Origin: Terriglobia bacterium
GTDB lineage: Bacteria > Acidobacteriota > Terriglobia > 20CM-2-55-15
NCBI GenBank assembly: GCA_965198225.1
Contig: CBDAOY010000007.1
Location: 224,001-288,000, forward strand
Length of the DNA stretch: 64,000 nucleotides
Reading direction: 5' to 3'
Both the position numbers and the translations under genes were made by a program. Positions 779 through 35,835 of the stretch are shown here, piece by piece (within the stretch, counting starts at the first letter, position 1; each line of letters begins with the position of its first letter). The notes below the pieces were generated by a model. That model saw nothing but the letters and a program-made list of their open reading frames with translations, did no database searches and was not told where the DNA came from.

Positions 779-1094
779 TTGTTCAGTTCTGTTCAGTCGA
801 GCGACGCATCGGACTCGTTGCCAACCCGCAAACACGTCGTGGTGAACGGTGGAGTGGGTCAAAAGAGATGGAATGAGCCCCTGTTTGACCACAGGCGCTC
901 ATCGGACTTGACGCTCGTTTAGAAATAGCTGATACTAAAGGCCTTACCGAAGGGATCGTAGCTCAGTCGGAAGAGCGCCTGCTTTACACAACAACTCAAA
1001 CACACCATCTTGTTGGTTCTTCGTGCCTGTTGGTTGGGTCAGGGCATGGTGTTACATGGTATTCGGCAGAAAATTGTTCAGTAAATTGTTCAGT
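779..1094 (+). repeat. att-like junction J1: arm-type repeat pair, tRNA-Val 5' half (952-989), second arm-type pair
   Basis: TTGTTCAGT-TCTGTTCAGT 779-797; CAGGCGCTCATCGGACTTGACG 892-913; GGGATCGTAGCTCAGTCGGAAGAGCGCCTGCTTTACAC 952-989; AAATTGTTCAGT x2 at 1071-1094. Confidence 0.9.
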
Positions 1095-1283
1095 CGGCCT
1101 TAAAGCAGGGTCATTCTTATTCGCGGCAACCGGACTCACCGCACTCGTCTCAAGGCGCCATTTGTCCGATACGCCAGTTTCACCTACCCGACACTTTGAT
1201 TGCTTCCAACTCCCACCTTTCGTAGTATTTACGCAAGTTTTTCCTGATCATGGCGAGGGAACGCCTGCGAGGCAGCGCGGCCT

Positions 1284-4082
1284 ATGGCTCTCACGGCAGG
1301 TACACGTCTGGGTCCCTACGAAATCGGCGCCCAACTCGGCGCTGGTGGTATGGGCGAGGTGTATCGTGCCACCGACACCCGTCTGGACCGCACGGTTGCC
1401 ATCAAAGTCCTTCCTCAACACCTCGCCGACGAACCGCAACGTCGGGAACGCTTCGAGCGTGAAGCCAAAGCCGTCAGCAGCCTGAACCATCCGCATATCT
1501 GCACGCTCCACGACGTGGGTGAACAGGACGGGATTCACTACCTCGTCATGGAGTACGTGGAGGGCGACACACTCCAGCAGCGATTGGAGAAGGGACGATT
1601 GCCGCTCGATCAGGCGCTCGAATACTCCATCCAGATCGCGGACGCGTTGGACAAGGCGCATCGGCAAGGTGTTGTGCACCGGGATCTGAAGCCTGGGAAC
1701 ATCATGATCACGAAATCAGCTGGCGTGAAGTTGCTCGACTTCGGGTTGGCGAAACTGAAGGGCGACGCCGGCCACGTGTCTCCTCTGTCGCAGTTGCCCA
1801 CGCAGGACGCCTCCGCACCTCTCACCGCTGAAGGCACCATCCTCGGCACGCTCCAGTACATGGCACCCGAGCAGTTGGAGGGCAAGGAAGCCGACGCCCG
1901 GACGGACATTTTCGCGTTCGGTGCCGTCGTCTACGAGATAGTGACGGGGAAGAAAGCGTTTGAGGGATCGAGTCAGGCAAGTTTGATCGCGGCGATCATC
2001 GAGCGCCAACCACCGGCGATTTCGGAACAGCAGGTTCTGGCCCCTTCGGCCTTGGACCGTTTGGTTCGCACTTGCTTGGCCAAAGATCCTGATGACAGGT
2101 GGCAGTCTATGGCGGACCTCTGTCGCGAACTTGAGTGGCTTTCCAGAAGGGAAACTGTCGATGTGCAGGCGATTAAGGAATCTCGGAGTCGTTCAAACAA
2201 GATTCAAACTGCAATGATCGTCGCGCTCCTCCTGGTTGTGTCGGTCATAGCAATCTCCTACTTCAGCGAAAGTGATCCACTACAAAGTTCCACCGCAGGG
2301 CAGCAAGTTCGGCAGCAACTGACCTATCAAGAATCGGCAAGCAAACCATCGTTATCACCGGACGGCGAGTTTCTCGCTTACGGAGTTGCTGACTGTTCCC
2401 CGGGCGCGGCCTGCAGAGCGCAACTTATGGTCAAGGATCTTGCAGGCGGAGATCCTATTTCGCTTGGTCCTGAGATTTCCTTTGACGGCCAGGAACTTAG
2501 GCCAAACTTTTTCTGGTCCATCGAGTGGAGTCCCGACGGTCAGGAATTGCTCTTTACTGCCCGCTACAATTCGAACCCTGAACTCTCAGGAGTCTACAGG
2601 ATTCCAAGACTGGGTGGTTTCGCCGAGCGGGTCGCAACGGAAGGTGTAGTTACATCTGCGGCGTATCGATTCGACGGAGAAACAATTGACTGGATTGCGA
2701 AGCCAGAAGGGCTCCAAGCGCAATCAGTCATGCGAACCAAGCAGGAAAACTCTGAAGTAGTGACTCGCACGTTGCCTATACGCGCCACACACCACCAATG
2801 GTCACCGGATGGTCAATGGCTTGCGTTGGTGGGGGCACCTGGGTTTGGCTTTTTCCGGAGCGGACCTGAAGTCGTGATCATGAGCCCGAGTTTTGAGATC
2901 GCAGACAAGATTCAGATAGGAAGTGCGACGGAGGGCTGGCCACACGTGCGTTGGCATCCGAGCGGGAACGCCATTTATCTCATGGTTGAGGGGGACCTTT
3001 TACGCGTCGAGATAGATGAGTCGAGCGGTACTTTCCTCAGCACCGAGGAGGTGGTTAGCGGCGTAGAGCCCCACGGTCTGCGGCAGTCCGAATTCGATGT
3101 CTCCCGGGACGGTCTATCCTTCGTCCATACACTGACGCGCGAGCGAATCGAAATTCGAGCCCTAGAAGCAAGTAACGATGGTCTCACAATGTCCGTACTC
3201 GCCGGCGGCATGACGTGGCGCGATTTCCCGGCCCTGTCGCCGGATGGAGAGATCGTCGCATACGTTCGGGAAGACCAACTGGGCTCGAACATTTATGTTG
3301 TTCCTTTCCGAGGTGGAGTCGAGCGAGCACTCACGGCCACGGCGAATGAGAAAACTCATCCACGCTGGTCCCCCGACGGCTCCCAGCTTGCCTATGTTGC
3401 ATTGGAGGATGAAGCTGTCTGGTTGAACGTCACAGCAAGTGTACCTGGGCAGATTGAGCAGATTGCGCGCCTATATGGGGCTGACACTCCTCCTTTTGCC
3501 TGGTATCCGGACAGCGAAAGACTGCTATTTGTAGACGAGTCTGGAAGGCTTTCGATTGCTACACTCGGAGAAGAAGATGTCCAGCACCTGATGGCTTTGT
3601 CGGACACGCCTGGAATAGGTTGGGGCGTGTCTGTGGAGCCGAACAGCGAATCAGTTGCAGTTTTTAATCACGGTCTCGGCGTAGAAGCGGGACTCCCCAT
3701 ATGGCTGGACGTTGCTTCGCTCGCTACTACGGCAAGCAAATGGACAACAGTCTTCAGGTCCCAGTTGGAGAATCTCGTAACGTCCACGCAGTCCGTTGGC
3801 AGCGCCGCCCTGATAGGATGGGTTCGTGGAGGCCTGCACGGTTGGATGCCCGATGGACGGCTGCTTTTGCTGCACTCCCGTTCAGAAGGAGTCGAAGTGA
3901 GCGCCGGTGTATGGGCCATACCAGTGGACGGCGGTACCCCCGAACAGCTTCTGGATCTCAGCGAATCATGTGGCGCACCCACGTGGGGCTCCTTGACCCT
4001 GGACCTGCGACGGATCGTCTGTGCGTATCGCCAGTCCGAAATGGACATCTGGTTGATAAGCAGTTTTGACGGGCGGCAATAA
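1284..4082 (+). CDS. Hanks-type Ser/Thr protein kinase with TM helix and TolB-like beta-propeller
   Basis: GAGGMGEVY, VAIK, HRDLKPGN, DFG and APE motifs; hydrophobic segment; repeated WSPDG motifs. Confidence 0.93.
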   Translation: MALTAGTRLGPYEIGAQLGAGGMGEVYRATDTRLDRTVAIKVLPQHLADEPQRRERFEREAKAVSSLNHPHICTLHDVGEQDGIHYLVMEYVEGDTLQQRLEKGRLPLDQALEYSIQIADALDKAHRQGVVHRDLKPGNIMITKSAGVKLLDFGLAKLKGDAGHVSPLSQLPTQDASAPLTAEGTILGTLQYMAPEQLEGKEADARTDIFAFGAVVYEIVTGKKAFEGSSQASLIAAIIERQPPAISEQQVLAPSALDRLVRTCLAKDPDDRWQSMADLCRELEWLSRRETVDVQAIKESRSRSNKIQTAMIVALLLVVSVIAISYFSESDPLQSSTAGQQVRQQLTYQESASKPSLSPDGEFLAYGVADCSPGAACRAQLMVKDLAGGDPISLGPEISFDGQELRPNFFWSIEWSPDGQELLFTARYNSNPELSGVYRIPRLGGFAERVATEGVVTSAAYRFDGETIDWIAKPEGLQAQSVMRTKQENSEVVTRTLPIRATHHQWSPDGQWLALVGAPGFGFFRSGPEVVIMSPSFEIADKIQIGSATEGWPHVRWHPSGNAIYLMVEGDLLRVEIDESSGTFLSTEEVVSGVEPHGLRQSEFDVSRDGLSFVHTLTRERIEIRALEASNDGLTMSVLAGGMTWRDFPALSPDGEIVAYVREDQLGSNIYVVPFRGGVERALTATANEKTHPRWSPDGSQLAYVALEDEAVWLNVTASVPGQIEQIARLYGADTPPFAWYPDSERLLFVDESGRLSIATLGEEDVQHLMALSDTPGIGWGVSVEPNSESVAVFNHGLGVEAGLPIWLDVASLATTASKWTTVFRSQLENLVTSTQSVGSAALIGWVRGGLHGWMPDGRLLLLHSRSEGVEVSAGVWAIPVDGGTPEQLLDLSESCGAPTWGSLTLDLRRIVCAYRQSEMDIWLISSFDGRQ

Positions 4083-4084
4083 CG

Positions 4085-4117
4085 ATGATTCCCGGCACCC
4101 AACTCGGCAGCTACGAA
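4085..4117 (+). pseudogene. 11-codon stub resembling a kinase N-terminus (MIPGTQLGSYE)
   Basis: Resembles AGTRLGPYE and MIGKTLGHYE of the neighbouring kinases; begins 2 nt after the previous kinase stop. Confidence 0.55.
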
Positions 4118-4161
4118 CCCACTTTTCCCCGAGTACGATTCGCGTGCAGCAGGAGGAATCC

Positions 4162-5781
4162 ATGAACCGTAGAGAGGTATTGGCCGGTCTGTTGGCCGCG
4201 GCAGCGTTTGGCCCTGATGCTTGTGGCACAGCCTTTGCAGAGGCCCAACAGGAGAACGCGTCGTTCGATCCGAGGACTCCACGCCCGCTGCGGTCGCCGA
4301 CCCTGCGTGAATTCCGTGCGATCGCCGAGGACTACGGGCTGGAACTTACCGACAGTGAACTCAACGTGTACCTGGAACGCATGAAACCTCAACTGGCTTC
4401 CTTGCGGAAGCTGGAGCAGATGGCCGAGCCGACTTTGCCCGTGAAGTACCCACGAACACCGGGCTACCGGCCAAAACGGGAGGACAACCCGCTTAACGCG
4501 TGGTTCTGGAAATGCTCCATCAAGGGGGCCTCGAGCGGATTGCTGGCCGGCAAGAAAGTGGTCGTCAAGGACACGTATTGTGTTGCAGGGTTGCCTCTGA
4601 CCAACGGTTCAAGCGTCTTGGATGGATTCGTTCCCAACGTCGACGCGACGGTGGTGACCCGGATTCTCGATGCTGGCGGCGAGATCGTCGGCAAATCAGT
4701 CTGCGAGGCGTTTTCATTTTCTGGAGGCAGCCACACTTCAGACACCGGCCCAGTAGTAAACCCCCACGACCGAACCCGCTCGGCCGGGGGTTCCTCAAGC
4801 GGAAGTGGGGCTCTTGTGGCCGCCGGCGAAGTCGACATCGCGACGGGAGGCGACCAGGGCGGATCGATCCGCATTCCCAGTTCCTGGTGCGGGATCTTCG
4901 GTCTCAAGCCGACCTACGGTCTGGTGCCGTATACGGGCATTTTCCCCGGAGAAATGACCATCGACCATACAGGGCCGATGGCCCGGACGGTCGAGGATTG
5001 CGCGCTACTGCTCGAGTCGGTCGCAGGACCGGACGGTTTCGACCCGCGACAGTGGGAACGCCGCGAGGGCGAAACCTACAGCCAGATGCTGACCGGAGAT
5101 GCCCGTGGACTTCGGTGTGGCGTTCTCAAGGAAGGGTTCGGGCGGCCGGAGGGGGAGACAGATGTCGACAATTTGGTCCGCGAGGCAGCAGAGCGGCTCA
5201 CGAGGACTGGGGCATCGGTCACCGAGGTTTCTGTTCCGATGCATCTGGAGGCCGCTGCAATATGGTCCGGCTTGAATGCGGGAGTCCTGCACCTCATGGA
5301 GAGCGGTGCGGTTGGAACGAACTGGCAGGGATTCTACCTGACGCAGTTAGTGGATGCTCTGGGGGCGCGAATGAAGGAGCGCGCAAACGACTGGCCTCCG
5401 AATGTCAAAGGATACATGCTCGGCGCCCGTTGGGTGCGAGACAACTATCACGGGCGTCATTATGCCAAGATGCAGAACATGAGAGGCGTTCTGCGAGACG
5501 CGTACAACCACGCCTTCGATGAGGTCGACCTGTTGGTCCTTCCGACGATTCCGATGAAAGCAACGCCCATACCGCCACCCGACGCGGATCTGAACCAAGT
5601 TGTCGAGCGCGCCGAAGAAATGTCCGGGAACACTTACCCATTCAATTTATCCGGCCACCCGGCAATGAACGTGCCCTGCGGCATGTCGGAAGGCCTCCCG
5701 GTCGGGATGATGCTCGTTGGACGACATGGGGAGGACGGGACGGTTCTACGAGCCGCCCATGCTTTCGAGCAACTCGGGTGA
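4162..5781 (+). CDS. Amidase signature family protein with probable Tat signal
   Basis: RBS AGGAGG at 4151; MNRREVLAGLLAAAAFG leader; GGSSSGSG and GDQGGSIRIP signature motifs. Confidence 0.92.
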   Translation: MNRREVLAGLLAAAAFGPDACGTAFAEAQQENASFDPRTPRPLRSPTLREFRAIAEDYGLELTDSELNVYLERMKPQLASLRKLEQMAEPTLPVKYPRTPGYRPKREDNPLNAWFWKCSIKGASSGLLAGKKVVVKDTYCVAGLPLTNGSSVLDGFVPNVDATVVTRILDAGGEIVGKSVCEAFSFSGGSHTSDTGPVVNPHDRTRSAGGSSSGSGALVAAGEVDIATGGDQGGSIRIPSSWCGIFGLKPTYGLVPYTGIFPGEMTIDHTGPMARTVEDCALLLESVAGPDGFDPRQWERREGETYSQMLTGDARGLRCGVLKEGFGRPEGETDVDNLVREAAERLTRTGASVTEVSVPMHLEAAAIWSGLNAGVLHLMESGAVGTNWQGFYLTQLVDALGARMKERANDWPPNVKGYMLGARWVRDNYHGRHYAKMQNMRGVLRDAYNHAFDEVDLLVLPTIPMKATPIPPPDADLNQVVERAEEMSGNTYPFNLSGHPAMNVPCGMSEGLPVGMMLVGRHGEDGTVLRAAHAFEQLG

Positions 5782-5825
5782 CACGACAGGTCCTTCGGAA
5801 AATAAGGGGGTTGGACACGGAGAAA

Positions 5826-8528
5826 ATGATCGGCAAAACGCTCGGTCACTACGAGATCACCGACAAGCTCGGTCAGGGCGGCATGGGATCGGTGTGGCTG
5901 GCGCAGGATTCGAAGCTGGGTCGGCAGGTCGCGATCAAGACCCTCCCGGAAGAGTTTGCACAGGACGAAGAGCGCCTGGCCCGGTTTGAACGGGAAGCCA
6001 AACTGCTGGCATCGTTGAACCACCCGAACATTGCCGCCATCTACGGACTGGAAGAAGACACCGGCACCCGCTTCCTTGTTCTGGAACTCGTCGAAGGTGA
6101 CACGCTTGCAGATCGGTTGAAGCGCGGTGCCGTCCCTGTCGAAGAATCCCTCAAACTCGCCTTGCAGATCGCAAAAGCCCTCGAAGCGGCGCACGAGAAG
6201 GGTGTCATCCACCGGGACCTGAAACCCGCCAACATCAAGGTCACATCCGAGGAGAGGATCAAGGTTCTGGACTTCGGGTTGGCGAAGGCGTTCGCGGGCG
6301 ATGGTGCCGATGCGAGCCTCTCAAATTCACCAACCCTGAGCATGGCGGCAACGCAACAGGGGGTGATTCTCGGTACCGCAGCCTATATGAGTCCTGAGCA
6401 GGCGAGTGGCGAAGCGACTGATAAGAGAGCCGACATTTGGTCCTTTGGTGTCGTCCTGTTTGAACTGCTGGTCGGACGACAGGTATTCACCGGCAGGACG
6501 GCCTCCCACGTGATGGGGGCAGTCCTGAACATCGAACCAGACTGGAACAGTTTGCCTCCGAATCTCCATCCTCGACTCCGATTGCTTCTTGAACGCTGCC
6601 TGGAAAAGGAGGCCAAGGACCGGGGCCACGACATTGCCGACGTGCGCGTGGATATTCAGAAGGTGCTCGCTGATCCCAACGGGGTGATGGTCCAGGAGGC
6701 TGCCGAAGTCCGGGCGTCGCGACCACCCCTTTCCTGGGTCGCACTCACAGCCGTTCTCAGTATGGCCCTCGTTGGAGTCACAGTCTGGAACATGAGGCCG
6801 ACAGCTCCACCTGACGCGGGACCAATCAGCCGCTTCGACTACCAACCGCCCGAAGGACTGCAGTTTGGAAACCCCGGGGGATCTCTAGTCGCAATTTCAC
6901 CCGACGGTCGTCACTTCGCCTACAACACCGCCGGCGGTCTCTACTTGCGCTCAATGGACGAACTTGAGGCCAGACTCCTCCCCGAAACCCAGGCAGGTGT
7001 CGCTACTCCGGTGTTCTCACCGGACAGTCGATGGATTGCGTACTGGTCCCAAACAGACGCCCAACTGAAAAAGATCGCCGTCGGTGGGGGTGCGCCCGTG
7101 ACCCTGTGCGATGCCGTCAGGCCTGATGGGGTGAGCTGGACAGTAGACGACACGTTACTGTTCGGTCGCCGCAACCAGTTTTCCACAGAGGGAGCCGCGA
7201 TCATGCGGATTTCCTCGAATGGAGGAACCCCAGAAGTACTAATCGAGGCTAGAGAAGGCGAACTGGTCTACGGGCCCCAGTTACTGCCCGATGGAGAGTC
7301 CGTACTCTTCACCGTGACGCGCGACACTGGGCCAACGCGGTGGGACCGGGCCCAGGTTGTCGTGGACTCGTCGGAATCGGGTGAGCGAAGGGTTCTGTTT
7401 GAGACCGGCAACGACGCGCGCTATGTGCCGACAGGCCATCTCACTTATGCGATTGACAATGTGCTGTTTGCAGTTCGGTTTGACGTTGTTGGCCTAGAGG
7501 TCGTTGGAGGTAGCGTTCCGGTCATTGAGGGCGTCGGGAGGGGTAGTTATCCGGGTCAGGCACGAGCCGCCGCGCACTATGGTTTCTCCGACAGTGGGAC
7601 GCTTGTATATCTCAGCGGAGGGGGGGGCTCACGCGATCCGAATCTGCTGCTTGTGGATCGTGAGGGGATCCCCGTCTCGGTGACGGATGACCGGCGCGAC
7701 TACGACGCCAACAGGATGTCCCCGGACGGTCAGAAGATCGCCGTTGGCGTAGTCTCGGTGGGAGAAAGCGACATTTGGGTCTATGACTTGCAGAGTGGGA
7801 CTCCGAGCCAGCTGACGGAGACCGACGGCAGGGAAAAGCGTTTTCCGACCTGGAGCCCAGACGGTTCGATGGTTGCGTTTACGGCGGACGGAGACATTTA
7901 CTGGAAGAAGGCGGACGGCAGCGAAGAAGCCGAGTTGTTGTGGGACGGCGAGTACCCCATCGATGATTACATGTCTTTCTCTTCGGACGGCAAGTACCTG
8001 GCCTTAGCCGAGCGTGGTGAGAACAAATCCAGCATATGGGTGCTATCAATGGAGAACCGGACGGCGGAGCCATTCCGGAATGATCCCGGTTCGGTATACC
8101 GCCCGATTTTTTCTCCAGATGGAAAGTGGATCGCCTACGACACCAATGAGTCCGGACGCGCGGAGGTGTGGGTCGCGCCATTTCCGGGTCCGGGGAGCAG
8201 AATTCAGGTTTCAACGGATGGAGGTGCGTTTCCGATGTGGTCTCCTGACTTGGGAGCGTTGTTCTTTCGGGGAGGTCCAGATAGCCAGGAGATCTGGGTG
8301 GCTCGAATCAAGCCCGAACCCTCTTTCAGCAGAAACGATCCGGCGGTCCTGTTCCGGCTCGACTTCCCGTTCCATGTTAACGACATCGATCCGGACGGCG
8401 AGCGGTTCCTGATGTTGGGGCTTGGGGATAGCGCAGGGCAGACTGGGGACACCGCCGCGCCAAGACAGGACATCATCATCGTCCAAAACTGGTTCGAGGA
8501 ACTGAAGGAACGGGTGCCTGTTCCATGA
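5826..8528 (+). CDS. Ser/Thr protein kinase with TM helix and TolB-like propeller
   Basis: VAIK, HRDLKPAN, DFG and YMSPEQ motifs; TM helix; SPDG repeats; ends NWFEELKERVPVP. Confidence 0.93.
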   Translation: MIGKTLGHYEITDKLGQGGMGSVWLAQDSKLGRQVAIKTLPEEFAQDEERLARFEREAKLLASLNHPNIAAIYGLEEDTGTRFLVLELVEGDTLADRLKRGAVPVEESLKLALQIAKALEAAHEKGVIHRDLKPANIKVTSEERIKVLDFGLAKAFAGDGADASLSNSPTLSMAATQQGVILGTAAYMSPEQASGEATDKRADIWSFGVVLFELLVGRQVFTGRTASHVMGAVLNIEPDWNSLPPNLHPRLRLLLERCLEKEAKDRGHDIADVRVDIQKVLADPNGVMVQEAAEVRASRPPLSWVALTAVLSMALVGVTVWNMRPTAPPDAGPISRFDYQPPEGLQFGNPGGSLVAISPDGRHFAYNTAGGLYLRSMDELEARLLPETQAGVATPVFSPDSRWIAYWSQTDAQLKKIAVGGGAPVTLCDAVRPDGVSWTVDDTLLFGRRNQFSTEGAAIMRISSNGGTPEVLIEAREGELVYGPQLLPDGESVLFTVTRDTGPTRWDRAQVVVDSSESGERRVLFETGNDARYVPTGHLTYAIDNVLFAVRFDVVGLEVVGGSVPVIEGVGRGSYPGQARAAAHYGFSDSGTLVYLSGGGGSRDPNLLLVDREGIPVSVTDDRRDYDANRMSPDGQKIAVGVVSVGESDIWVYDLQSGTPSQLTETDGREKRFPTWSPDGSMVAFTADGDIYWKKADGSEEAELLWDGEYPIDDYMSFSSDGKYLALAERGENKSSIWVLSMENRTAEPFRNDPGSVYRPIFSPDGKWIAYDTNESGRAEVWVAPFPGPGSRIQVSTDGGAFPMWSPDLGALFFRGGPDSQEIWVARIKPEPSFSRNDPAVLFRLDFPFHVNDIDPDGERFLMLGLGDSAGQTGDTAAPRQDIIIVQNWFEELKERVPVP

Positions 8529-11182: not shown

Positions 11183-11226
11183 TCTTCTTGTCTGAGTCCG
11201 AAATTCTTCTACGTTCCGCGAAGCGG

Positions 11227-11545: not shown

Positions 11546-11629
11546 CGGTTGGCAGACGCCACCGACCCCAGTCACGACGTTGACCGGGTGCCTCTCTCCC
11601 TCTGACGGCGAAGAACCCGATTTGTCTTC

Positions 11630-11646
11630 TGCACCACTGTGGTGCA
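11630..11646. promoter_or_regulatory. Palindromic operator candidate TGCACCA-CTG-TGGTGCA
   Basis: Perfect 7-bp inverted repeat 10 nt upstream of an RHH-like gene. Confidence 0.55.
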
Positions 11647-11656
11647 TACTGGTGCC

Positions 11657-12159: not shown

Positions 12160-12255
12160 GCCTGTCCTGCAAATCCCTACGTCAAACGACTGTCCGCGGG
12201 ACTCGAGTTTGACCTGAAAATATAACGATCGCGGAATGATCTCCTGTGTAGAATA

Positions 12256-26365: not shown

Positions 26366-27035
26366 GAAATTCGCCGATCCCGCCGTCTATATCCGGCGGC
26401 TCCTGTCGCTCGATTACGTCATCGATCACTCCGACCTGCACTGGCTCCCGACCGAAGAGGAAAAGGTTTGGTACTGCGAAGAAGTCGGCATCCCCACCGA
26501 CCGCCTACCGAAGCGGATTTATGGTGGAGCGGCCGGGAATGTCACCCGATATTTCCCCCTGAAGCTCCCCGTTGCGGGAGGGCGGACCACCACGTTTGTC
26601 TATGTCGATCCGGGCAACGGAACCTCCGCCGAACTGCGGCATTGGGGCCGGGCGCACGAGCATGTCTGGAGTGTCATGCGGGGACGCGGGATCACGGTTC
26701 ATGTGGCCGCAATCGGAGTCAACCCGGATGCCGACAGGCGAGCGCGGACTGCATTGGAGGGATGGGCGCGGGACCGGAAAAGAGTCCGGGACGGGAGCCC
26801 CCTGGAGACGGAATTGCGGGAGGAGCTGGACAGAGTTTCCAGAGCCCTCGATACCTCGGATTCCAGGATTCTCGACCGCTACGGCGGCTTTGACAATACC
26901 GGGCGGCGCTACCGGGAATTGACGGATATCCTGGCTCGACCCGCGCCGCATAACATCCGGATCGACACGTTCGAGATATGGCGATCCCGGCGCGTTTATC
27001 CCGACGGTGTGCAAATCTACGAGGCGCCGGTATGA
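26366..27035 (+). pseudogene. 5'-truncated mobile-element hypothetical protein
   Basis: The frame of ORF 26676-27035 is open upstream: RRLLSLDYVIDHSDLHWLPTEEEK...RYFPLKLP...FVYVDPG; directly precedes conjugation genes. Confidence 0.5.
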
Positions 27036-27435
27036 GATCACAGATCGGTCATTATTTGAGAGGATCGGCCCCTCGGTTTCGCGCGAAAAATCGGGTCCCA
27101 TCCCTGCGACAATTGGATGCCCAATTACCAGCCCCGGTGCCGTACGAGGCTGGTAAAAGGTCAGGGGGTATAAATTACCATGGCCTTTTACCATTTTCCT
27201 TGTTCCATATCGCTTTTCTTAACTTGTGGTTAGGCCATTTTTACCCCCGGGTTCCGGAGCTGCACCAGAGGGGGGGAGAGTGGCGGGAGCGGCCCCACCT
27301 TTTTTTGTCTCGTGCTGCACCAGACCCCCTCGCTATATTCCATCGCGGGGGTCTGGAGCCGCCCTCCCCAAGGGGGACCGCTCCCGCCACAATGATCCCT
27401 GCGGGAAGGCCTGGATTCCGGCGGAGTGCGACGGC

Positions 27436-29466: not shown

Positions 29467-30425
29467 GCGCCACCGGAGGCATGGACTACCTTCGGCCGTT
29501 TTTGCCGGGACTGGAATCGGTCCTCGAAGATGAGGACGTCAGCGAGATCATGATTAACGGTCCCGCCAACGTCTGGGTTGAAAGCCGGGGGGAAATCCGG
29601 CAGCATCCCGCGCCGGGCCTCGATCGGGCCGCGCTGGATCGTGCGGCCATTCAGATCGCGCGGCCCCTGGGTCTCGATCCGGCCACCGCGCCCATTCTCG
29701 ATGCGCGCCTGGACGATGGCTCCCGCGTGGCGATCTGTGTCCCCCCGGCCGCGCCGCACGTCGCCATCACCATCCGGCGCTTCGGAAACCGCGCATTCAC
29801 GGCCGAGCAACTCGTCGCCCAGGGTGCCCTGCCGCAGCTCGTCTACGAGACAGCCCGCTCTCTGCTCCGGTCCCGCTCGAACATCCTGGTCAGCGGGGGG
29901 ACCGGGTCGGGAAAAACCACGCTGCTCAATGCCCTGGTCGAACTGCTCCCCGACGACGACCGCATTGTTTCCATCGAGGACCCGCTGGAGCTCCGGATCG
30001 AGAGGGACAACTGTGTCCGCTTCGAGGCACGCGGCCTGACCGATGGCGTCACGATCCGCGACCTGGTCAAGCATTCTCTCCGGCACCGCCCCGACCACAT
30101 TGTGGTCGGCGAAGTCCGCGGCGGCGAGGCCGCCGACCTCCTGCAGGCGCTCAATACCGGGCACGGCGGCTCCCTGACCACCGTCCACGCGAACAACGCC
30201 CTATCGGCGCTGTCCCGGCTCGCAGCCTGCGCCATGCAGGGCGAGAGCGACCTGCCTTGGGAAGTCACCTGCCGGGGCGTGGTGGACGGGATTCAGATGG
30301 TGGTTCACATGACGCGCCGGGAAGGGCGGCGTTTTGTCGAGGAAGCCTTGCTGGTTAAAGGCTACGAAGCGGGTGAAAACCGTTGGCTCACAGAACCGAT
30401 CTGGAGGGAACACGATGATGCATGA
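29463..30425 (+). CDS. VirB11/CpaF-like secretion ATPase
   Basis: GGTGSGKTT, SIEDPLEL, LRHRPDHIVVGEVRG and NTGHGGSLTTVHAN motifs. Confidence 0.92.
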   Translation: MSATGGMDYLRPFLPGLESVLEDEDVSEIMINGPANVWVESRGEIRQHPAPGLDRAALDRAAIQIARPLGLDPATAPILDARLDDGSRVAICVPPAAPHVAITIRRFGNRAFTAEQLVAQGALPQLVYETARSLLRSRSNILVSGGTGSGKTTLLNALVELLPDDDRIVSIEDPLELRIERDNCVRFEARGLTDGVTIRDLVKHSLRHRPDHIVVGEVRGGEAADLLQALNTGHGGSLTTVHANNALSALSRLAACAMQGESDLPWEVTCRGVVDGIQMVVHMTRREGRRFVEEALLVKGYEAGENRWLTEPIWREHDDA

Positions 30426-30675
30426 CGAAACCAAGGACGAGACAAGGCGTGACGACATGAACTCCCAAGAGAAAGTCATACGGGTCACCTCGCTCGAAGA
30501 CTTCGACCGGGAGCTGGCGCGGGACGGAGGTGAAACCCTCGAGGTCCCGGCCTGGATGGCCACCGAGTACGGCATCTTCCCCGAGGACGTCGGCACGGAG
30601 GACGAAATCCGGGACGACGGCCAAGGGCCAGCCAGCGAAGCTATGACCAAGCGTTCGGCGGAAAGGAGCGACTGA
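30415..30675 (+). CDS. Small acidic hypothetical protein
   Basis: RBS GGAGG before ATG 30415; coupled to neighbours on both sides. Confidence 0.5.
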   Translation: MMHDETKDETRRDDMNSQEKVIRVTSLEDFDRELARDGGETLEVPAWMATEYGIFPEDVGTEDEIRDDGQGPASEAMTKRSAERSD

Positions 30676-31900
30676 TGCCGCAACAAGACGATGCTCTCGT
30701 TGCGGCCATTGCGCGCAACGACCCGGCTGGCGTCGAAGCCGCCATCGGCGCGGGCGCCGATCTGAATGCCCGCCAGGGCTACAACCACACCGCCTTGTCC
30801 CGTGCCGTCGCCAATGACTCGGCCCGCCTCGCCGGCCTGTTGCTTGAGCGCGGCGCGGACCCGAACGCTCGCAGCGAGAGCGGAGAAACCCCGCTCCATC
30901 ACGCCCGGCTGGCATCCCGTGAAGTCTTCGATCGGATGATCGCAGCCAGCGCGGATCCGAACTCCGCCGACCGCATTGGCCGGACTCCGTTGCATCTCGC
31001 CGTCTCCGACCCCGATTCAGACAGCCTGGAGCGCTTCGAGCGGGTCGTCCGCTTGATCAACGCCGGGGCGGACCCGAACGCCCGCACGAATCGCCAGGAA
31101 ACCCCCTTGCACCGGGCGGCCCTTTCCTTACGCGACTCCGCTCCAACCATCCGGCAACTACTGGATGCCGGTGCGGACCCGAAGGCCCGGGACGAGCTGG
31201 GCAACACAGCCCTTCATTACGCCGCCGGCAAGTCGTCCATCGACCGGGCCTGTGCGGTGGATCACTTGCTCCGAGCCGGAGCTGGACTCCATGCCCGGAA
31301 TCTCGCCGGAGCCACGCCGCTTCATTTCGCGGCGGCCGGCGATGGGGACGGGCAAGCCAAGACAATGACCCGGCTGCTCCCCGAGCACCCTGACCTGACC
31401 ATCCGCAACGCCGACGGGCAGACGCCCCTAGACGTTGCCACCTCACCCACCGCCAAGGAAATCCTTTCCCGGCGATGGCCCGCGACTGCCCGCCAGCAAC
31501 AGGAGACAACAACCGTGAAGGAACAACCCGAGAAGAACACGCCGAAGAAACCGGACCGTACCGAGGAATACCACCGTCAGTTCGCCGACAGGATCATCAA
31601 GCAGATCGAGCAGGGCACCGCCCCGTGGCAGAAGCCGTGGAAGCCGGGCGAGCGCGTCCTCCCGTCGAACGTCGATACCGGTCGGCCCTATGCGGGCGGC
31701 AACAGCCTCCATCTGGCCGCCGTGGCGCAAGCGCGCGGCTACGCCGACGTCCGCTGGGGAACCTACCGCCAGATCCAGGCCCTCGGCGGCCAGGTCCGAA
31801 AAGGCGAGCAGGGCACCCGCATCCTGTCCTACCAGGATCACAAACGAGTTGCCGTCACTGACGAGCGGGGACAGCCCGTGACCGATTCGGAAGGCAAGCG
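30675..31900 (+). CDS. Ankyrin repeats fused in frame to an ArdC (DUF1738) N-terminal domain; 3' truncated
   Basis: TPLH ankyrin repeats, then IIKQIEQGTAPWQKPW...YAGGN...RWGTYRQ...GGQVRKGE; internal AGGAGA + GTG at 31516. Confidence 0.75.
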
Positions 31901-32190
31901 GCCGATTCTGAGCGGCGCCGCGCCGCCCAAGACCTGGGCCTTCCCATCGACGAGAACGGGCGCGTGCACTACCCCGACGCGCAACTGGAGTACACCGGTG
32001 AGGATGGCCGCACCGGCCGCGTCAACGTCGAGGTGGCCTCCGGACACTGCAGCGCTTCCGCCATCCGGCCAAGGCGAACGTCGGATTCGTGGTACACGCC
32101 ACCGGATCCTCCCAGGCCCGGGTGCTTCGCGTATTGGGCACCGGCGGGGAGCATGGCTCTATTCGGGGGCCGACCCAGGGGGATCCGGCG
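31900..32190 (+). pseudogene. C-terminal fragment of a replication-relaxation-like mobile-element protein
   Basis: Alternative frame LGLPIDENGRVHYPDAQLEYTGEDGRTGRVNVEVASGH; frameshifted. Confidence 0.4.
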
Positions 32191-32446
32191 GCTTTCGAAC
32201 TGTACGGGACGGCAATGCAACCGTGGAAAATCAGCGCGGGTTTGACCGCCGCCGTTGCAGGTGTGACCGTCCTCGCTGCTGGTTCGCGTCTGGACTATCT
32301 GGCGCCATTCTGGCGGGTCATCCTCGCCGACCATGGCCTGGTCATCGCCTTGCATCTGGGCCTGGTGCTGGCCGCAGTGGCGGCTACGCTCTACGCGTGC
32401 GCCCGGGCCGCCGGGCTGGCCGACCTGGGGCGGAGGGTCGTTCTAG

Positions 32447-34071
32447 GAGCCTGTCGGGAATAGATTCACGGATCGGAAGAGCAGTCCGGACCTGAGATGG
32501 CTGAAGAGATTGGTAGAAAGAGGCATTATGAAATGCTTTCTGATCGACGATCTGGACCAGGGCTTGTTGATGCCGCCGTCGTTACACGACTGGCTACCGG
32601 AGAATCACCTGGCGCGATTCGTGGTGGATTTGGTGGACACGTTGGATCTTTCGGCATTCTACCGGTCCTACGAGGAGAAGGACGGGAGGGGGCAGGCGGC
32701 GTACCATCCAGTGATGATGGTGCGGTTGTTGATTTATGGCTATTGCACCGGAGTGGTCAGCTCGCGGCAGATCGAGAAGCGGACGTACGAGGATGTGGCG
32801 TTTCGGTACCTGAGTGCGGATTCCCATCCGGATCACAGCACGGTGAGCGAGTTTCGGAAGCGGCATTTGGGAGCACTGGCGGGACTGTTCCTGCAAGCGC
32901 TGCAATTGTGCCAGAAGGCGGGGCTGGTGAAACTGGGGCATGTGGCGGTGGACGGGAGCAAGGTGCAGGGGAACGCAAGCAAACACAAGGCGATGAGTTA
33001 CGGTCGGATGTGTGAATCCGAGGAGAAGTTGAAGGCCGAAGTGGAAGAGTTGCTCCGGCAGGCCGAAGCGGCGGATGCGGCCGAGGATGAGAAGGAACGG
33101 CGAGGACAGGCCGACAAGTTACCCGACGAGTTGGCCCGGCGTGAAAGTCGGCTGAAGAAGATCCGGGAGGCGAAGGCGGCACTGGAAGCCGAAGCCCAGC
33201 AGAAGGCCGAGGAGACGAAGGCGGCCGCGGAAGCCCGAACCGCCGAACGGCTCCAGAAGGAGGCTGAGACAGGTCGGAAGACTCCGGGACGCCCACCGCA
33301 GGTTCCCGATCCCGAGCAGGCGGTGCCGGAACCAAAGGCGCAACGGAACTTCACGGACCCGGACAGCCGGATCATGCCCGACGGGGCGCACAAAGGCAGC
33401 TTCGTACAGGCCTACAATGCACAGATTGCCGTGGATAGCGAAGCACAGATCATCGTGGCCGCCAACATCACGCAGCAGAGCAACGACAAACAACAACTGG
33501 CACCGATGTTGGAACAGGTGAAGCAGAATACGGGAGCCTCCCCGGTGGCGTGCAGTGCCGATACCGGCTATTGGAGCCCGGAGCAAGTCGCCGACAAGCG
33601 GGTTGAAGGCATCGACCTGCACGTGGCGACAGGCAGGGATAAACATGGCGCATCGGCCGCACCCATCCAGGTATCGGATGAAGGTGACCTTCTGCAGCAA
33701 ATGAGACAGAAACTCCAAAGCGAGGCCGGCCGGGCGGTTTACAAGATGCGCAAGGCGATTGTGGAACCGGTATTCGGACAGATCAAGGAATGCCGGCACT
33801 TCCGCCGGTTCAGTCTCCGCGGACTGGAGAACGTGCAGGCAGAGTGGACGCTGGTGTGCCTGACACACAATCTATTGAAACTGTATCGCGCGGGACGGGG
33901 TGATACAGATGTCGGCAGCATGAATCAAGGTCCAGGGTTCTTGGAAAGCAGCTTCTACAGACAACATACAGGCTGTCTCCGCTCCATTTGGATTGTCTGT
34001 GACTCTTTTCGCCGCCTCTTCATCCAATACGCCGCCTTGCATCCTTCAATAACCTTATTGCCGACAGGCTC
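32447..34071 (+). mobile_element. IS1182-family insertion sequence with CTAG target duplication
   Basis: TIRs GAGCCTGTCGGGAATA / TATTGCCGACAGGCTC; CTAG at 32443-32446 and 34072-34075. Confidence 0.92.
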
Positions 34072-34075
34072 CTAG
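32528..34075 (+). CDS. IS1182-family transposase
   Basis: LMPPSLHDWLPENHLARF, VAVDGSK, NFTDPDSRIM, YNAQIAVD, ADTGY and VEPVFGQIK motifs. Confidence 0.93.
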   Translation: MKCFLIDDLDQGLLMPPSLHDWLPENHLARFVVDLVDTLDLSAFYRSYEEKDGRGQAAYHPVMMVRLLIYGYCTGVVSSRQIEKRTYEDVAFRYLSADSHPDHSTVSEFRKRHLGALAGLFLQALQLCQKAGLVKLGHVAVDGSKVQGNASKHKAMSYGRMCESEEKLKAEVEELLRQAEAADAAEDEKERRGQADKLPDELARRESRLKKIREAKAALEAEAQQKAEETKAAAEARTAERLQKEAETGRKTPGRPPQVPDPEQAVPEPKAQRNFTDPDSRIMPDGAHKGSFVQAYNAQIAVDSEAQIIVAANITQQSNDKQQLAPMLEQVKQNTGASPVACSADTGYWSPEQVADKRVEGIDLHVATGRDKHGASAAPIQVSDEGDLLQQMRQKLQSEAGRAVYKMRKAIVEPVFGQIKECRHFRRFSLRGLENVQAEWTLVCLTHNLLKLYRAGRGDTDVGSMNQGPGFLESSFYRQHTGCLRSIWIVCDSFRRLFIQYAALHPSITLLPTGS

Positions 34076-34274
34076 TGGAGCGCTCGATCCGCCGTGGCGA
34101 AGGCGATCCGGAACTCGCCGGGGCCCTCCGGCGGGGCGCCGAAGGTGATTGGGAATGACCTCCGCACCCGGAGTTCTGCATTTCTGGGGCTTTTCTTTGA
34201 AATCGATCGCAGCAAGCCGAGCAGGCTAAGTGGGAAATGGTTTTTGACGGATTTTCTTGATCTCTGAGACAGCA

Positions 34275-34499
34275 ATGAATCCTGAATCAACATTCTCCGA
34301 GAACAATACGGAAGAGGTCCTTGAAGCGCTTCTCACCGTCGAGGAAGTTTCAGCTTTGCTCAAGGTTCCCAAGTCGTGGGTCTATGGCAAGACAAGACGG
34401 CGAGGTTTGGAGCGTCTTCCTCATTTGAAATTGGGCAAGTATCTCCGTTTTGAAGAACATGACGTTAAAGCGTTTCTTCAGCGATGCAAATCCCGATGA
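34275..34499 (+). CDS. Excisionase / HTH_17 DNA-binding protein
   Basis: LLTVEEVSALLKVPKSWVY...LPHLKLGKYLRF; directly upstream of the integrase. Confidence 0.85.
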   Translation: MNPESTFSENNTEEVLEALLTVEEVSALLKVPKSWVYGKTRRRGLERLPHLKLGKYLRFEEHDVKAFLQRCKSR

Positions 34500-34573
34500 C
34501 GATGTCTGCAGCAACCGGTACAATAGCCGGCGAACTAGAGCAAGAAGAGCCAACGGGAGAAAGGAAAACTCGT

Positions 34574-35719
34574 ATGGCTCGAAAGAAGCGGCCGTATGGA
34601 AGCGGCTGTGTCATCTCCACAGCCAATGGATTGGCGATTCGCTGGCGGGAAACAATTGTCAAGGACGGCAGACGACACCGGGTTCTACGTTATGAAGCGC
34701 TCGGTAACGTTTCCAGGAAGGAAGCAGCCAAGAAACTTCGGGAGAAACTCCAGACAGCGGATATTCCCAGACAGGCGCCAATCACATTCGAAGAACTGGC
34801 ATCAGAGTGGGTGAAGAGCATCGTGCCCATGTACAAGTACTCGACGCGCAAGAGCCACCGGCACATTCTCAACAAGCATCTGTTGCCAATGTTCGGAACG
34901 CTCGAATTAACGAAGCTCACCCGGCAACGGGTCCAGGGCTTTATCGCTGAGTTGAACAGGTTCGGCTATGCGCCGCATTCAATCCACCACTATCACGAGG
35001 TATTGAGCGCGGTGCTGCGGACCGCGGTGTCTTGGAACCATATCAGCGAGAATCCCGCGCAGGGCGTTTCATTGCCGAAACTCAAGCCTAAACGTCCGAA
35101 GACAGTGTTGACGCCGAAGCAGGCAGCGGACTTGCTGCTTGTATTACCCCTCAAGACCAAGACGATGGTTGCGCTGGCGATTCTCTCCGGATTGCGGAGG
35201 GGGGAATTGCTGGCCCTGCGGTGGAAAGCAGTCGATGAATCCGCTGGCTCCATCATCGTGTCGGAAGCCGTCTATGACGGCCGTTTCGACAGCCCGAAGA
35301 CCAAAGCGGGAAAACGGGCCGTCCCTGTGCCGGAGCATATGCTGGACCTGCTGATGGAATGGAAGGCGAAGGCTCGCCGAACGGATCCCGAGGACCTGGT
35401 GTTTGGCACCAGGAATGGAACTCCGGTTTCATCGAACAACTTGATGCGACGGCAGATTCTGCCTGCCTGTGAAAAGCTTGGACTGCCGCGCTCCACATGG
35501 CTGACGTTCAGGCGTACGTATTCCTCGTGGTCGCATCAGAATGGAGTGCCCGACAAGGTGATCGCCGAGCTGATGGGGCATGCGAACGTCTACACGACCC
35601 TCAATGTCTACACACAAGTGATGGACGAGTCCAGGCGTGCGGCTGCCGGCCGGATCGGAAGGGAATTGTTCAGTATTGTTCAGTTTCGGGGAAAATCAGC
35701 CAAAAAACAGACAGCTTGA
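34574..35719 (+). CDS. int: Tyrosine recombinase (phage-type integrase)
   Basis: N-terminal arm-binding-like region; SGLRRGELLAL, PKTK, LTFRRTY and LMGHANVYTTLNVYTQ motifs; adjacent to the tRNA. Confidence 0.93.
   Translation: MARKKRPYGSGCVISTANGLAIRWRETIVKDGRRHRVLRYEALGNVSRKEAAKKLREKLQTADIPRQAPITFEELASEWVKSIVPMYKYSTRKSHRHILNKHLLPMFGTLELTKLTRQRVQGFIAELNRFGYAPHSIHHYHEVLSAVLRTAVSWNHISENPAQGVSLPKLKPKRPKTVLTPKQAADLLLVLPLKTKTMVALAILSGLRRGELLALRWKAVDESAGSIIVSEAVYDGRFDSPKTKAGKRAVPVPEHMLDLLMEWKAKARRTDPEDLVFGTRNGTPVSSNNLMRRQILPACEKLGLPRSTWLTFRRTYSSWSHQNGVPDKVIAELMGHANVYTTLNVYTQVMDESRRAAAGRIGRELFSIVQFRGKSAKKQTA
35663..35684 (+). repeat. Arm-type repeat pair inside the integrase 3' end
   Basis: GAATTGTTCAGT-ATTGTTCAGT, the same motif as in junctions J1-J4. 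Confidence 0.8.
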
Positions 35720-35762
35720 GAAATGGCTAAAATAATAAAATAGAAGCGGTTATCCCCTCTAA

Positions 35763-35835
35763 GGGATCGTAGCTCAGTTGGAAGAGCGCCTGCTTCACAC
35801 GCAGGAGGTCATCGGTTCGAGCCCGGTCGGTCCCA
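35763..35835 (+). tRNA. tRNA-Val (anticodon CAC); CCA not encoded
   Basis: Cloverleaf: GGGATCG/CGGTCCC acceptor stem, GCTC/GAGC D-stem, CCTGC-TTCACAC-GCAGG anticodon arm, TTCGAGC T-loop. Confidence 0.96.

Follow-up and report, generated by a model that had tools for sequence, protein, structure and literature searches.

How does one tRNA gene come to stand at the end of a row of its own 5' halves? We analysed a 64,000-nt stretch of DNA (the window) from a soil-dwelling Terriglobia bacterium of the Acidobacteriota, in which displaced copies of the start of tRNA-Val lie upstream of the intact gene. The initial annotation read the locus as an integron-like array of cassettes captured in trans by one integrase. 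Our analyses suggest that the array was probably built by tandem accretion, with related elements of one att family integrating serially into a single tRNA-Val(CAC) gene. It is a large example of a known process and not a new integron-like or gene-capture system.

Displaced tRNA halves upstream of tRNA-Val

ARAGORN and Rfam agree on a single tRNA in the region, which is the sole CAC isoacceptor gene of the genome (Table 1); over positions 1-40000, Rfam found no family besides it. The first 38 nt of the gene stop at the final base of the anticodon loop (CCTGC TTCACAC, followed by GCAGG). As the initial annotation had reported, this segment recurs at 952, 11402 and 12317: the window holds four matches, intact gene included, compared with none in 100 shuffles. 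The array proved larger than noted. A fifth half lies at C7:214030, 9,970 bp left of the window, and all five genome-wide copies are on contig C7, co-oriented and within 46 kb upstream of the tRNA. Counting these copies and three truncated arm relics, the array comprises at least seven tandem units over about 47 kb. The original left boundary (native promoter, half and left arm) is missing, leaving the start of the array undocumented. No repeat of the tRNA 3' part, the sign of a conventional right-side island, was found downstream in the genome.

The halves differ at 1-3 of 38 nt, whereas their flanks diverge by 23-33% (P = 5e-6 to 5e-3 across six junction pairs). Such conservation is expected if each half had once belonged to the functional tRNA of an element that evolved separately.

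On the 3' side of the tRNA, a tyrosine-recombinase fragment (36036-36542) is cut by an IS transposase (36575-37711).

Table 1 Features of the tRNA-Val array (window positions unless marked C7)
Feature	Position	Strand	Remarks
Truncated left arm	C7:212899-212955		directly after hydrolase gene
Right-arm relic	C7:219907-220072		core missing
Kinase-type right ends	C7:219907-220072; 677-849; 11125-11303
3' end of last Ser/Thr-kinase/PD40-propeller gene of U1	1-733	+	Pfam PD40
Right-arm (P) 9-mer pair of U1	779-797	+	TTGTTCAGT then CTGTTCAGT, 10-nt spacing
Degenerate tRNA-Val copy, then promoter-like site	865-936	+	in front of J1 half
Promoter-like site TTGACG-17-GATACT	908-936	+	before J1 half; promoter scan
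J1, displaced 5' half of tRNA-Val	952-989	+	2 mismatches; anticodon reads TAC
U2	990-11439		10450 bp
Left arm (P') of U2, alpha subtype	990-1096	+	9-mers at 1074 and 1086
U2 cargo	1284-11182	+	Pfam: three kinase-PD40 genes, one amidase
U2 kinase-PD40 genes	1284-4082, 5778-8528, 8525-11182	+
U2 amidase	4066-5781	+
Right-arm 9-mer pair of U2	11227-11245	+	TTGTTCAAT then TTGTTCAGT
Promoter-like site TTGACG-17-GAAAAT	11357-11385	+	before J2 half
J2, displaced 5' half of tRNA-Val	11402-11439	+	0 mismatches
U3	11440-12354	+	915 bp: left arm, interior, degenerate right arm, promoter-like site, J3 half
Left arm of U3	11440-11547	+
Promoter-like site of U3	12272-12300	+	before J3 half
J3, displaced 5' half of tRNA-Val	12317-12354	+	1 mismatch
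Left arm (P') of U4, beta subtype	12355-12461	+	9-mers at 12439 and 12451
U4 cargo	12576-18244	.	Pfam, PADLOC
U4 HipA-like	12576-13805	-
U4 HTH	13811-14179	-
U4 195-aa ORF	between HTH and QatC-like genes
U4 QatC-like	15075-16478
U4 HTH-M78/RmrA-like	16387-17646
U4 PDC-S70-like	17531-18244
Truncated ankyrin-repeat ORF	18526-18746	+	joined to U5 left arm exactly at core boundary
U5	18747-35800		adjoins tRNA; sole unit with xis and intact int
Left arm (P') of U5	18747-18854	+	94-96% identical to U4 left arm
U5 body	19406-34075	.	Pfam: ankyrin proteins, ORC/CDC6-like ATPase, transfer-type genes, IS
U5 IS transposases or fragments	23626-, 32510-34075
U5 VirD4/TraG-like	27226-29466
U5 VirB11-like	29463-30425
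U5 Ank-ArdC	30675-32495
Excisionase-like gene (HTH_17)	34257-34499	+	overlaps int start
Tyrosine integrase, 411 aa	34484-35719	+	PF00589 and PF14659
Right-arm 9-mer pair of U5	35666-35684	+	within int 3' end; encodes ELFSIVQ
Promoter-like site CAGACA-17-AATAAT	35708-35736	+	read as element-supplied; overlaps int stop codon
Intact tRNA-Val(CAC)	35763-35836	+	5' 38 nt and promoter assigned to U5
Unrelated tyrosine-recombinase fragment and IS transposase	36036-37711	-	different element's remnant, 3' side of tRNA

Attachment arms and arm-type repeats

The conserved ends described in the initial annotation are both present. Each tRNA half is followed by a left end (AACAAC, then ATCTTGTTGGTTCTTC, then two 9-mers) and preceded by a right end (CAGGCG.TCAT.GGACTTGACG). 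Every unit begins with a conserved left arm of ~105 bp and, if intact, closes with a right arm that includes a tRNA promoter and the 5' tRNA half. The left-arm core ATCTTGTTGGTTCTTC has five exact copies genome-wide, all co-oriented on C7 and within 46 kb upstream of the tRNA.

The 9-mer TTGTTCAGT occurs 11 times in the window, always on the + strand (0.35 expected), and six of the genome's seven close 9-mer pairs fall inside the array. Direct copies are present on both arms: every left arm has them about 85-105 nt to the right of the core, and in right arms they lie 80-175 nt to the left of the tRNA start. Arm-type repeats on both att arms, distinct from the core, are a trait of lambda-type (arm-binding) integrase systems, and Int would be predicted to bind these 9-mers. 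Pairs of TTGTTCAGT had been reported at J1 and J2; pairs do exist there, but each consists of one exact 9-mer and one copy with 8/9 matches.

GGACTTGACG contains the -35 box of a tRNA promoter, and CAGGCG.TCAT.GG is a degenerate copy of the tRNA's own anticodon stem, variable loop and T-stem. In front of J1, this copy has 33/41 matches to tRNA positions 13-53, a score reached by 0/500 shuffles. An inverted-repeat scan of four junction regions found no attC-like hairpins at unit ends, which are direct repeats; the inverted repeats in these regions lie only within or against tRNA-like sequences.

Unit contents and the single integrase

Six units lie left of U5, the unit beside the tRNA: U0-U4, with U1 being two fused units. 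The initial annotation gave unit sizes of 10450, 915 and 23446 bp, which are correct, but the largest (12355-35800) is a composite of U4 and U5 with an extra left arm inside. That arm has no tRNA half in front of it. The ankyrin ORF joins it at GCCTG in anticodon-stem register, and U4 has neither its right end nor its tRNA half. Nor are the units uniform cassettes: their lengths range over 0.9-17 kb, they are multi-gene, with as many as four or more genes carried on both strands, and in most (four units) an arm or its 9-mers are absent. A full arm pair is kept only in U2, in U1 as a whole and in U4 and U5 together, and the array holds three truncated arm relics overall. GC content has no diagnostic value here, with 54-61% in the units and 60% in the whole genome.

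No integrase, relaxase or T4SS Pfam families were found in the scanned ORFs of U1, U2 and U3. The kinase-PD40 ORF of U1 enters from left of the window (continuing from L001 17751) and stops at 573; homology to the C-termini of its paralogues runs to about 733, and repeat family D10 covers 675-736. U1 and U2 share an 880-bp stretch with 88% identity near their left ends and have paralogous kinase genes. No homologue of the 683-bp interior of U3 was detected, its ORFs had no Pfam or PADLOC match, and the interiors of U3 and U0 have no other copy in the genome or the compared loci.

The observation that only the last unit carries xis and int was confirmed: tblastn searches of the 6.4-Mb genome revealed no second full copy of Int, and with Int and Xis as queries U1, U2 and U3 were negative. 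The catalytic Arg, Arg, His and Tyr positions of Int are conserved in an alignment with the PDB 6en0 Int and five relatives. Pfam found no domain in Int residues 1-110 even at E up to 10, and the Int family has a conserved N-terminal block of about 70 residues. The HTH_17 ORF is predicted to be the recombination directionality factor. A self-transmissible ICE would need a relaxase and a complete type IV secretion system besides int/xis; among the 12 U5 ORFs scanned, the only families of this kind are VirD4/TraG-like, VirB11-like and ArdC. From this content and the IS insertions, we interpret U5 as a decayed ICE or IME.

The three kinase-type right ends (74-78% identical) share the junction between the kinase gene end and the 9-mer pair, without an int remnant. 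The shared junction implies that int was lost before these ends diverged, and not in three independent decays. Hence some units may have spread without an integrase of their own. This would be a known CIME or cis/trans-mobilisation scenario and nothing new, as the account in PMC5704250 indicates. Behind the kinase genes, the 9-mer pairs with 10-nt spacing would translate as LFSxVQ, resembling ELFSIVQ of Int. We considered them as relics of an int 3' end; there is no further int homology, and the idea is conjecture only.

Relatives in other genomes

The initial annotation had suggested comparison with related genomes. Arms of this family were found in at least 10 other genomes, where several tRNAs are used, and sister att lineages share one anticodon loop but use it in either orientation. 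In the same-genus genomes G002 and G003, neither DNA nor protein synteny around tRNA-Val is conserved, and no clean empty site can therefore be defined. All six related integrases examined (49-75% identity) adjoin the 3' end of a tRNA-Asn, Ala, Lys or Val gene, which fits a tRNA-anticodon-loop integrase family, and Xis-like homologues lie upstream of related int genes. G024 carries a U5-like backbone at a tRNA-Asn 3' fragment (VirD4 79%, VirB11 83%, Xis 67%, Int 57% identity). Over 599 bp, a sister element on contig C5 of the present genome matches the G024 copy with 99.8% identity, but its int has already been truncated by loss of the 5' part, which suggests that decay by deletion is fast. 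In G015, right arms of this type also occur without int, and two tRNA halves lie 1,042 bp apart in a similar tandem junction. No close int was found in the arm-carrying genomes G016, G006, G055 and G021. A metagenome scan for the 19-nt junction of half and left arm gave five matches, all of them unrelated chance matches on inspection.

These relatives bear on whether the units arrived separately. Alternatively, unequal homologous recombination between flanking junction repeats could have duplicated one or two elements in place, with divergence of the copies afterwards, in which case the unit count would overstate the number of integrations. The stretch shared by U1 and U2, their paralogous kinase genes and kinase-to-9-mer right ends, and the near-identical left arms of U4 and U5 would suit such amplification. 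However, most arm pairs inside the array are 71-82% identical and less alike than arms from different genera, with only the U4 and U5 arms reaching 94%: the J3 arm has 91% identity to G024 and 85% to G021, and the J1 arm 86% to G015. That the arms are often nearer to those of other genera than to each other argues for independent acquisitions. Near-perfect halves beside diverged flanks are unexpected for silent copies drifting in place, and the cargo differs from unit to unit. We regard local amplification as very unlikely.

Assembly support

Seven public sequencing runs were available as Logan contigs, and four of them were aligned to window positions 500-19500. The contigs break at the repeated tRNA half, and no listed piece bridges J1, J2 or J3, as might be expected if the junctions of this metagenome-derived assembly were misjoined alternative alleles or collapsed repeats. 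However, the junctions differ by 15-30% outside the 38-nt half and are thus no repeats that could collapse. Contigs of other runs, with 0-2 differing letters, cover the U4/U5 junction as well as the interiors of U3 and U4, and similar tandem junctions exist elsewhere, such as that of G015. An assembly artefact is extremely improbable. None of the joints listed for these four of seven runs skips a whole unit, an observation that is uninformative on excision and on the continuity of J1-J3.

Formation of the array

Under serial integration, recombination by the tyrosine integrase at the anticodon loop would insert each circle at tRNA-Val. The elements would bring a promoter together with the first 38 nt of the tRNA, so that insertion takes place upstream of the gene. 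Each arrival would give the resident 3' half a new promoter and 5' half, and would push the previous promoter and half leftwards, fused to the newcomer's left arm. Most tRNA-targeting islands are unlike these upstream-inserting, promoter-carrying elements. The initial annotation is supported in reading the junctions as att-type junctions of elements integrated in tandem at a regenerated tRNA, with a crossover region that would border the anticodon loop and direct 9-mers on both arms. Growth in one direction from the tRNA side, with the oldest unit leftmost, is likewise supported.

U5 would then be the newest unit and U0-U4 integrase-less, CIME-like remnants at different stages of deletion. Marks of decay include a left arm cut by the hydrolase gene, a right arm without its core, the ankyrin ORF fused to an arm and the IS in U5. 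At most U2, U1 as a whole, and U4 and U5 together, which keep both arms, could still be excised by the Int/Xis of U5. Integration, decay to a CIME and entry of a new element into the regenerated att site have been described as a process (PMC5704250, section 2.3). Against this reading stand the kinase-type right ends that would have lost int before diverging, the int-less right arms of G015, the arm-carrying genomes in which no close int was found and the missing left boundary of the array.

The capture first proposed would instead rely on non-autonomous attP-only circles, which a single integrase would excise and insert in trans at the regenerated tRNA, giving an integron-like array. Both arms of U2 and of U1 as a whole are kept, with 9-mers identical to those of U5, and the int-less kinase lineage persisted and diversified with a near-perfect tRNA half; both would fit such capture. 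So would the recurrence of the left-arm-then-kinase arrangement in G015 and the junctions without a nearby close int that are common in other genomes. Topologically, however, the array does not fit capture by the resident Int. The unit with int occupies the right end, and int has the tRNA as its direct neighbour; as a circle entering the intact tRNA lands right of all residents, this unit would be the last arrival, with nothing captured since. The incomplete arms, the large and heterogeneous multi-gene units and the absence of hairpin recombination sites also count against capture, and int-less persistence is equally explained by co-transfer with a neighbour, the cis-mobilisation of CIMEs described in PMC5704250. 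We consider capture in trans unlikely.

It is also rather doubtful that the alpha-arm kinase units are a long-lived, int-less 'att-only' lineage that parasitises the Int/Xis of an ICE/IME lineage, with the loop targeted either way. The right end of a unit would then consist of the tRNA promoter, a fossil tRNA and the 5' tRNA half, and because it carries this promoter, each accretion would set a strong promoter before the co-oriented cargo of the next unit. Inverting the 7-nt overlap would let the integrase family target one anticodon loop either way. If this reading were true, the array would gain an integron-like expression logic built on tRNA att chemistry.

Comparison with known systems

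Serial integration and decay place the array closest to the tandem accretion of CIMEs with ICEs or IMEs (ICESt1/ICESt3-type, streptococci). In the process described there, a site-specifically integrated element loses its integration and transfer genes and becomes a remnant flanked by att sites, a new element enters the regenerated att site so that the two stand in tandem with att repeats in common, and the recombinase of the neighbour may still excise such remnants (PMC5704250). U1, U2 and U3 are CIME-like in this sense, with half-plus-arm junctions and no integration or transfer genes in the ORFs scanned, and U5 brings xis and int with the same left arm and 9-mers. The present array differs in its host phylum, in targeting the tRNA-Val anticodon loop and in upstream insertion with a promoter and 5' half. 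It has at least seven units instead of two or three.

As in the Islander/TIGER-type islands outlined in PMC4383910, an intact tDNA is accompanied by co-oriented displaced fragments on the matching side, the att site is centred on the anticodon and there is a tyrosine integrase; the recombinase lies inside, and the 5' fragments lie upstream, all on the + strand. Table 1 of the Islander report lists 159/3919 islands with 5' tDNA fragments, and its tandems number 125 with two or more and 4 with three or more (PMC4383910). A tandem by the rule stated there requires an integrase in every unit (PMC4383910), whereas here one of seven units has one. Under that rule, an array of this kind would either count as a single island or escape notice.

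Klebsiella islands upstream of tRNA-Arg (arg2) also show 5'-side integration with a 5' repeat, which their description calls unusual compared with all other islands (bioRxiv 10.1101/2020.11.02.365908). Those islands use a D-loop sublocation in that description, whereas the repeat here reaches the end of the anticodon loop, and arms related to the array also use the same loop in the conventional orientation.

The locus resembles integrons in that a single tyrosine recombinase gene stands next to int-less units arrayed in order and in one direction. In contrast to integrons, it shows neither attC hairpins nor an attI/Pc arrangement, and lacks small, promoterless single-ORF cassettes next to the integrase. 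The recombinase is a member of a family that targets tRNAs, with Xis and arm repeats, and no unit lies between int and the target.

Implications

To our knowledge, mobile elements of Acidobacteriota are little described. Among the papers listed by literature searches, none treats this system in the phylum, which is not proof that there is none. The locus defines an att family, characterised by a left arm of ~105 bp, arm repeats of TTGTTCAGT and a core in the anticodon loop, and an integrase family common to several genera. The 599 bp shared by the C5 sister element and G024 are evidence of very recent inter-genus transfer. Island finders that expect an integrase in every unit will overlook such stacks or lump their units together. 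The array would be a clear natural case of an element supplying the promoter and 5' half of an essential-type gene, and the use of one anticodon loop both ways round is relevant to the question of how integrases that target tRNAs switch specificity.

Tandem units upstream of tRNA-Val(CAC)

The source genome (6.4 Mb, nine contigs) has four tRNA-Val genes, one of which is the CAC isoacceptor, and this gene (35763-35836) is the single tRNA gene in the window. The window spans positions 224001-288000 of contig C7. The initial annotation reported that the 5' 38 nt of this gene, up to and including the final base of the anticodon loop, recur upstream at 952, 11402 and 12317. All three copies were recovered, with 2, 0 and 1 mismatches, respectively, and 100 shuffles gave no match. 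An additional 38-nt half is located at C7:214030 on the same contig, 9,970 bp beyond the left edge of the window. We refer to the junctions bearing these halves, from left to right, as J0 to J3. The conserved left end previously noted after each half is present as a ~105-bp arm (P') containing AACAAC, ATCTTGTTGGTTCTTC and two copies of TTGTTCAGT that are 12 nt apart. The window contains 11 copies of TTGTTCAGT, all on the + strand, where 0.35 would be expected, and six of the seven close TTGTTCAGT pairs in the genome are within the array.

A P' relic without a preceding tRNA half is located at 18747-18854. The last unit, originally delimited as 12355-35800, does contain int but is composite, and this second P' splits it into U4 and U5. 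Only the distal half of P' is left at C7:212899-212955, immediately after the stop codon of a gene for an alpha/beta-hydrolase, and a right-arm relic is found at C7:219907-220072. The arm relics and the half/arm junctions together indicate an array of at least seven units.

Coordinates of array units and related features (window positions unless a fetched locus, L, is named; negative values lie left of the window)
Feature	Location	Remark
U0	-11044..-9933	
U1a	-9932..-3928	
U1b	-3927..989	
U2	990-11439	
U3	11440-12354	
U4	12355-18746	
U5	18747-35800	
Degenerate tRNA-Val copy in right arm	865-915; 11330-11362; 12245-12277; L001 about 9940-9990	D-loop to T-stem
Left arms after 5' tRNA halves in G055	L034 about 10330-10475; L035 about 10480-10620	Genome of another family
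TTATGCACG after half	L025 about 10130-10168 (G003); L037 9619-16738 (G015)	

Right arms, promoter-like sites and a fossil tRNA

In U5, the 9-mer pair of the right arm (P) falls in the final codons of int and is translated as ELFSIVQ; a promoter-like site and then the tRNA come next. The 110 nt upstream of the half in J0-J3 are unlike those of U5, and we named this sequence type A. It holds a promoter-like site, TTGACG-17-GATACT or TTGACG-17-GAAAAT, which ends 16 nt upstream of the half; in J1, J2 and J3 this site is at 908-936, 11357-11385 and 12272-12300. Its proximal ~75 nt are up to 95% identical to the region 5' of an intact tRNA-Val from a different genus (genome G027), and because no arm is near that gene, this is a native tRNA-Val promoter type. 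Genomes of the same genus as the source (G001-G003) have a third kind of sequence upstream of tRNA-Val. Each promoter-plus-half in the array therefore looks to have been imported with an element.

The right-end motif described initially (CAGGCG.TCAT.GGAC) is present and belongs to a degenerate tRNA-Val copy. In J1, the alignment of this copy covers tRNA positions 13-53 and matches at 33 of 41, a score reached by none of 500 shuffles. The copies in J0, J2 and J3 align less well (17-35 of 500 shuffles score as high), and for G027 the shuffle test shows no significance. The fossil is best preserved in J1, its anticodon-arm part is a 12-bp palindrome (873-884/891-902), and the -35 box comes after its T-stem. 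It may stem from an ancestral tandem tRNA or from a tRNA regenerated earlier.

Proposed integration and order of arrival

We propose that an element circle (P-O-P') would recombine with the tRNA at the anticodon loop. On the left, P' would be joined to the previous promoter and half; on the right, the resident 3' half would be joined to the P arm, promoter and half of the element. Repeated rounds would give the observed series, with the newest unit beside the tRNA and the oldest leftmost, an order already suggested in the initial annotation and consistent with integration at the regenerated tRNA. The anticodon stem is palindromic (CCTGC/GCAGG), so the left arm meets CCTGC and a 7-nt loop in either orientation, with the loop alone inverted. 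Orientation may be determined by the overlap.

U5 encodes an excisionase-like HTH_17 protein and a tyrosine integrase of 411 aa. As first reported, int is confined to this last unit: tblastn of the genome detected one full copy, in U5, and one fragment on contig C5 (63% identity, residues 230-400). Arg, Arg, His and Tyr are conserved at the catalytic positions, and the first His position of the HxxR motif is Leu in this integrase and in all five aligned relatives. Its nearest named relatives are from Blastocatellia/Acidobacteriota MAGs, and all six related integrases examined face the tRNA 3' end.

Since the newest position is beside the tRNA, where U5 sits, U5 would have been the last to arrive, and since no unit lies between int and the tRNA, nothing appears to have been captured after it. 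This is the main argument against the proposal that this integrase captured the other units in trans, with the caveats that the units might have arrived together as a composite and that internal junctions may also serve as integration sites.

Probable separate acquisition of diverged units

In junction pairs, the half differs at 1-3 of 38 nt and the flanks at 23-33% (P = 5e-6 to 5e-3). The left arms fall into an alpha subtype (J0, J1 and two G015 arms) and a beta subtype (J3, U5, and arms from G021, G024, G016, G006 and G055), and several arms of the source genome are nearer to those of other genera than to one another. U1 and U2 are related (880 bp in common at 88% identity), as duplication of resident units in place would have it. 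However, because the half is kept while its flanks diverge and several arms match other genera better, these comparisons make separate acquisition of diverged elements likelier than local duplication.

Three kinase-type right ends have one common integrase-less junction (74-78% identity), so an integrase-less lineage has persisted. This is the best evidence for the initial proposal of capture in trans, but it fits co-transfer beside an integrase-bearing element equally well. Co-transfer of CIMEs, att-flanked remnants without their own integration or transfer genes, with an integrase-bearing neighbour is described in PMC5704250.

Gene content and decay

Ser/Thr-kinase/PD40-propeller paralogues are present in both U1 and U2, accompanied by an aminotransferase or an amidase gene, and no gene was recognised in U3. 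In U1, the final kinase-PD40 gene (1-733) stops at 573, and homology to the C-termini of its paralogues runs to ~733, possibly reflecting a frameshift or premature stop. In U4, QatC-like (E = 1.7e-26), RmrA-like HTH-M78 (E = 1.3e-24) and PDC-S70-like ORFs at 15075-18244 adjoin a HipA/HTH pair, a possible defence-type cargo.

The U5 cargo includes ankyrin proteins, an ORC/CDC6-like ATPase, VirD4-like, VirB11-like and Ank-ArdC proteins, and two IS-derived genes. The 12 U5 ORFs scanned yielded neither a relaxase nor a VirB4 family, and we therefore interpret U5 as either a decayed ICE or an IME. A 978-aa ORF (23626-26562) opens with the C-terminal portion of a DDE_Tnp_1_4 transposase, followed by cadherin-like and fibronectin-III domains, and is probably a fusion made by an IS remnant.

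The arm or its 9-mers are missing in four units. At the U4/U5 joint, an ankyrin ORF meets P' exactly at the core boundary, with GCCTG in anticodon-stem register and 9 of 17 positions matching. A joint in G024 is alike (9 of 17, with the overlap-like heptamer TTCGAAC), and both could be integrase-mediated secondary-site events.

The - strand just 3' of the tRNA (36036-37711) holds a fragment (168 aa) of a tyrosine recombinase that is unrelated to the U5 integrase and is interrupted by a DUF772/DDE transposase. It has the appearance of a second island, of the conventional type, that has decayed on the opposite side of the tRNA. The 3' part of tRNA-Val is not repeated elsewhere in the genome.

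Distribution in other genomes

Matches containing the left arm were detected in 9 of 59 other relatives searched and in 10 genomes from a sample of 399 others of the class, in which only two candidates per genome were scored. In G015, a distance of 1,042 bp separates two halves, which gives a mini-unit resembling U3. A U5-type right arm, a half and P' occur in this order in G016 and G006, and int is deleted there. Two P' arms are found in G024, at 12 and 29 kb on the 5' side of tRNA-Val, and the interval between them contains no PF00589 match. The G055 arms follow 5' halves of tRNA-Val(TAC) and tRNA-Lys(TTT), so the 5'-side orientation is not confined to tRNA-Val(CAC). The conventional orientation is found in G024 and G015. 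There the arm is preceded by the segment from the loop to the 3' end, in reverse complement, of tRNA-Val(CAC) and of tRNA-Asn. A metagenome scan for the half/left-arm junction yielded chance matches only.

A truncated int 3' part, the 9-mer pair and a tRNA-Asn 3' part form 599 bp that are 99.8% identical between two genera (L002 6748-7346, source contig C5 at about 901.7-902.3 kb; L044, G024). Identity breaks off within the tRNA-Asn anticodon loop, and the int 5' part is already lost on C5. This similarity indicates that a sister element moved between the genera very recently.

In G003 and G015, a different sequence (TTATGCACG) is found behind this 38-nt half at the same boundary, with an IS30-like transposase ~0.7 kb away in both. 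G015 also has a 7.08-kb IS-rich unit between near-identical copies of right arm plus half.

Relation to known systems

The array does not pass as an integron, as the junctions have no attC-like hairpins and single-ORF cassettes are lacking. Islander lists a 5' fragment in 159 of 3919 islands and, requiring an integrase in each unit, only four tandems of three or more (PMC4383910). Upstream integration at Klebsiella tRNA-Arg is described as unusual (bioRxiv 10.1101/2020.11.02.365908). An established model has elements accrete and decay to CIMEs (PMC5704250). The array is of this known kind, and the locus is a large, well-preserved new example of it.
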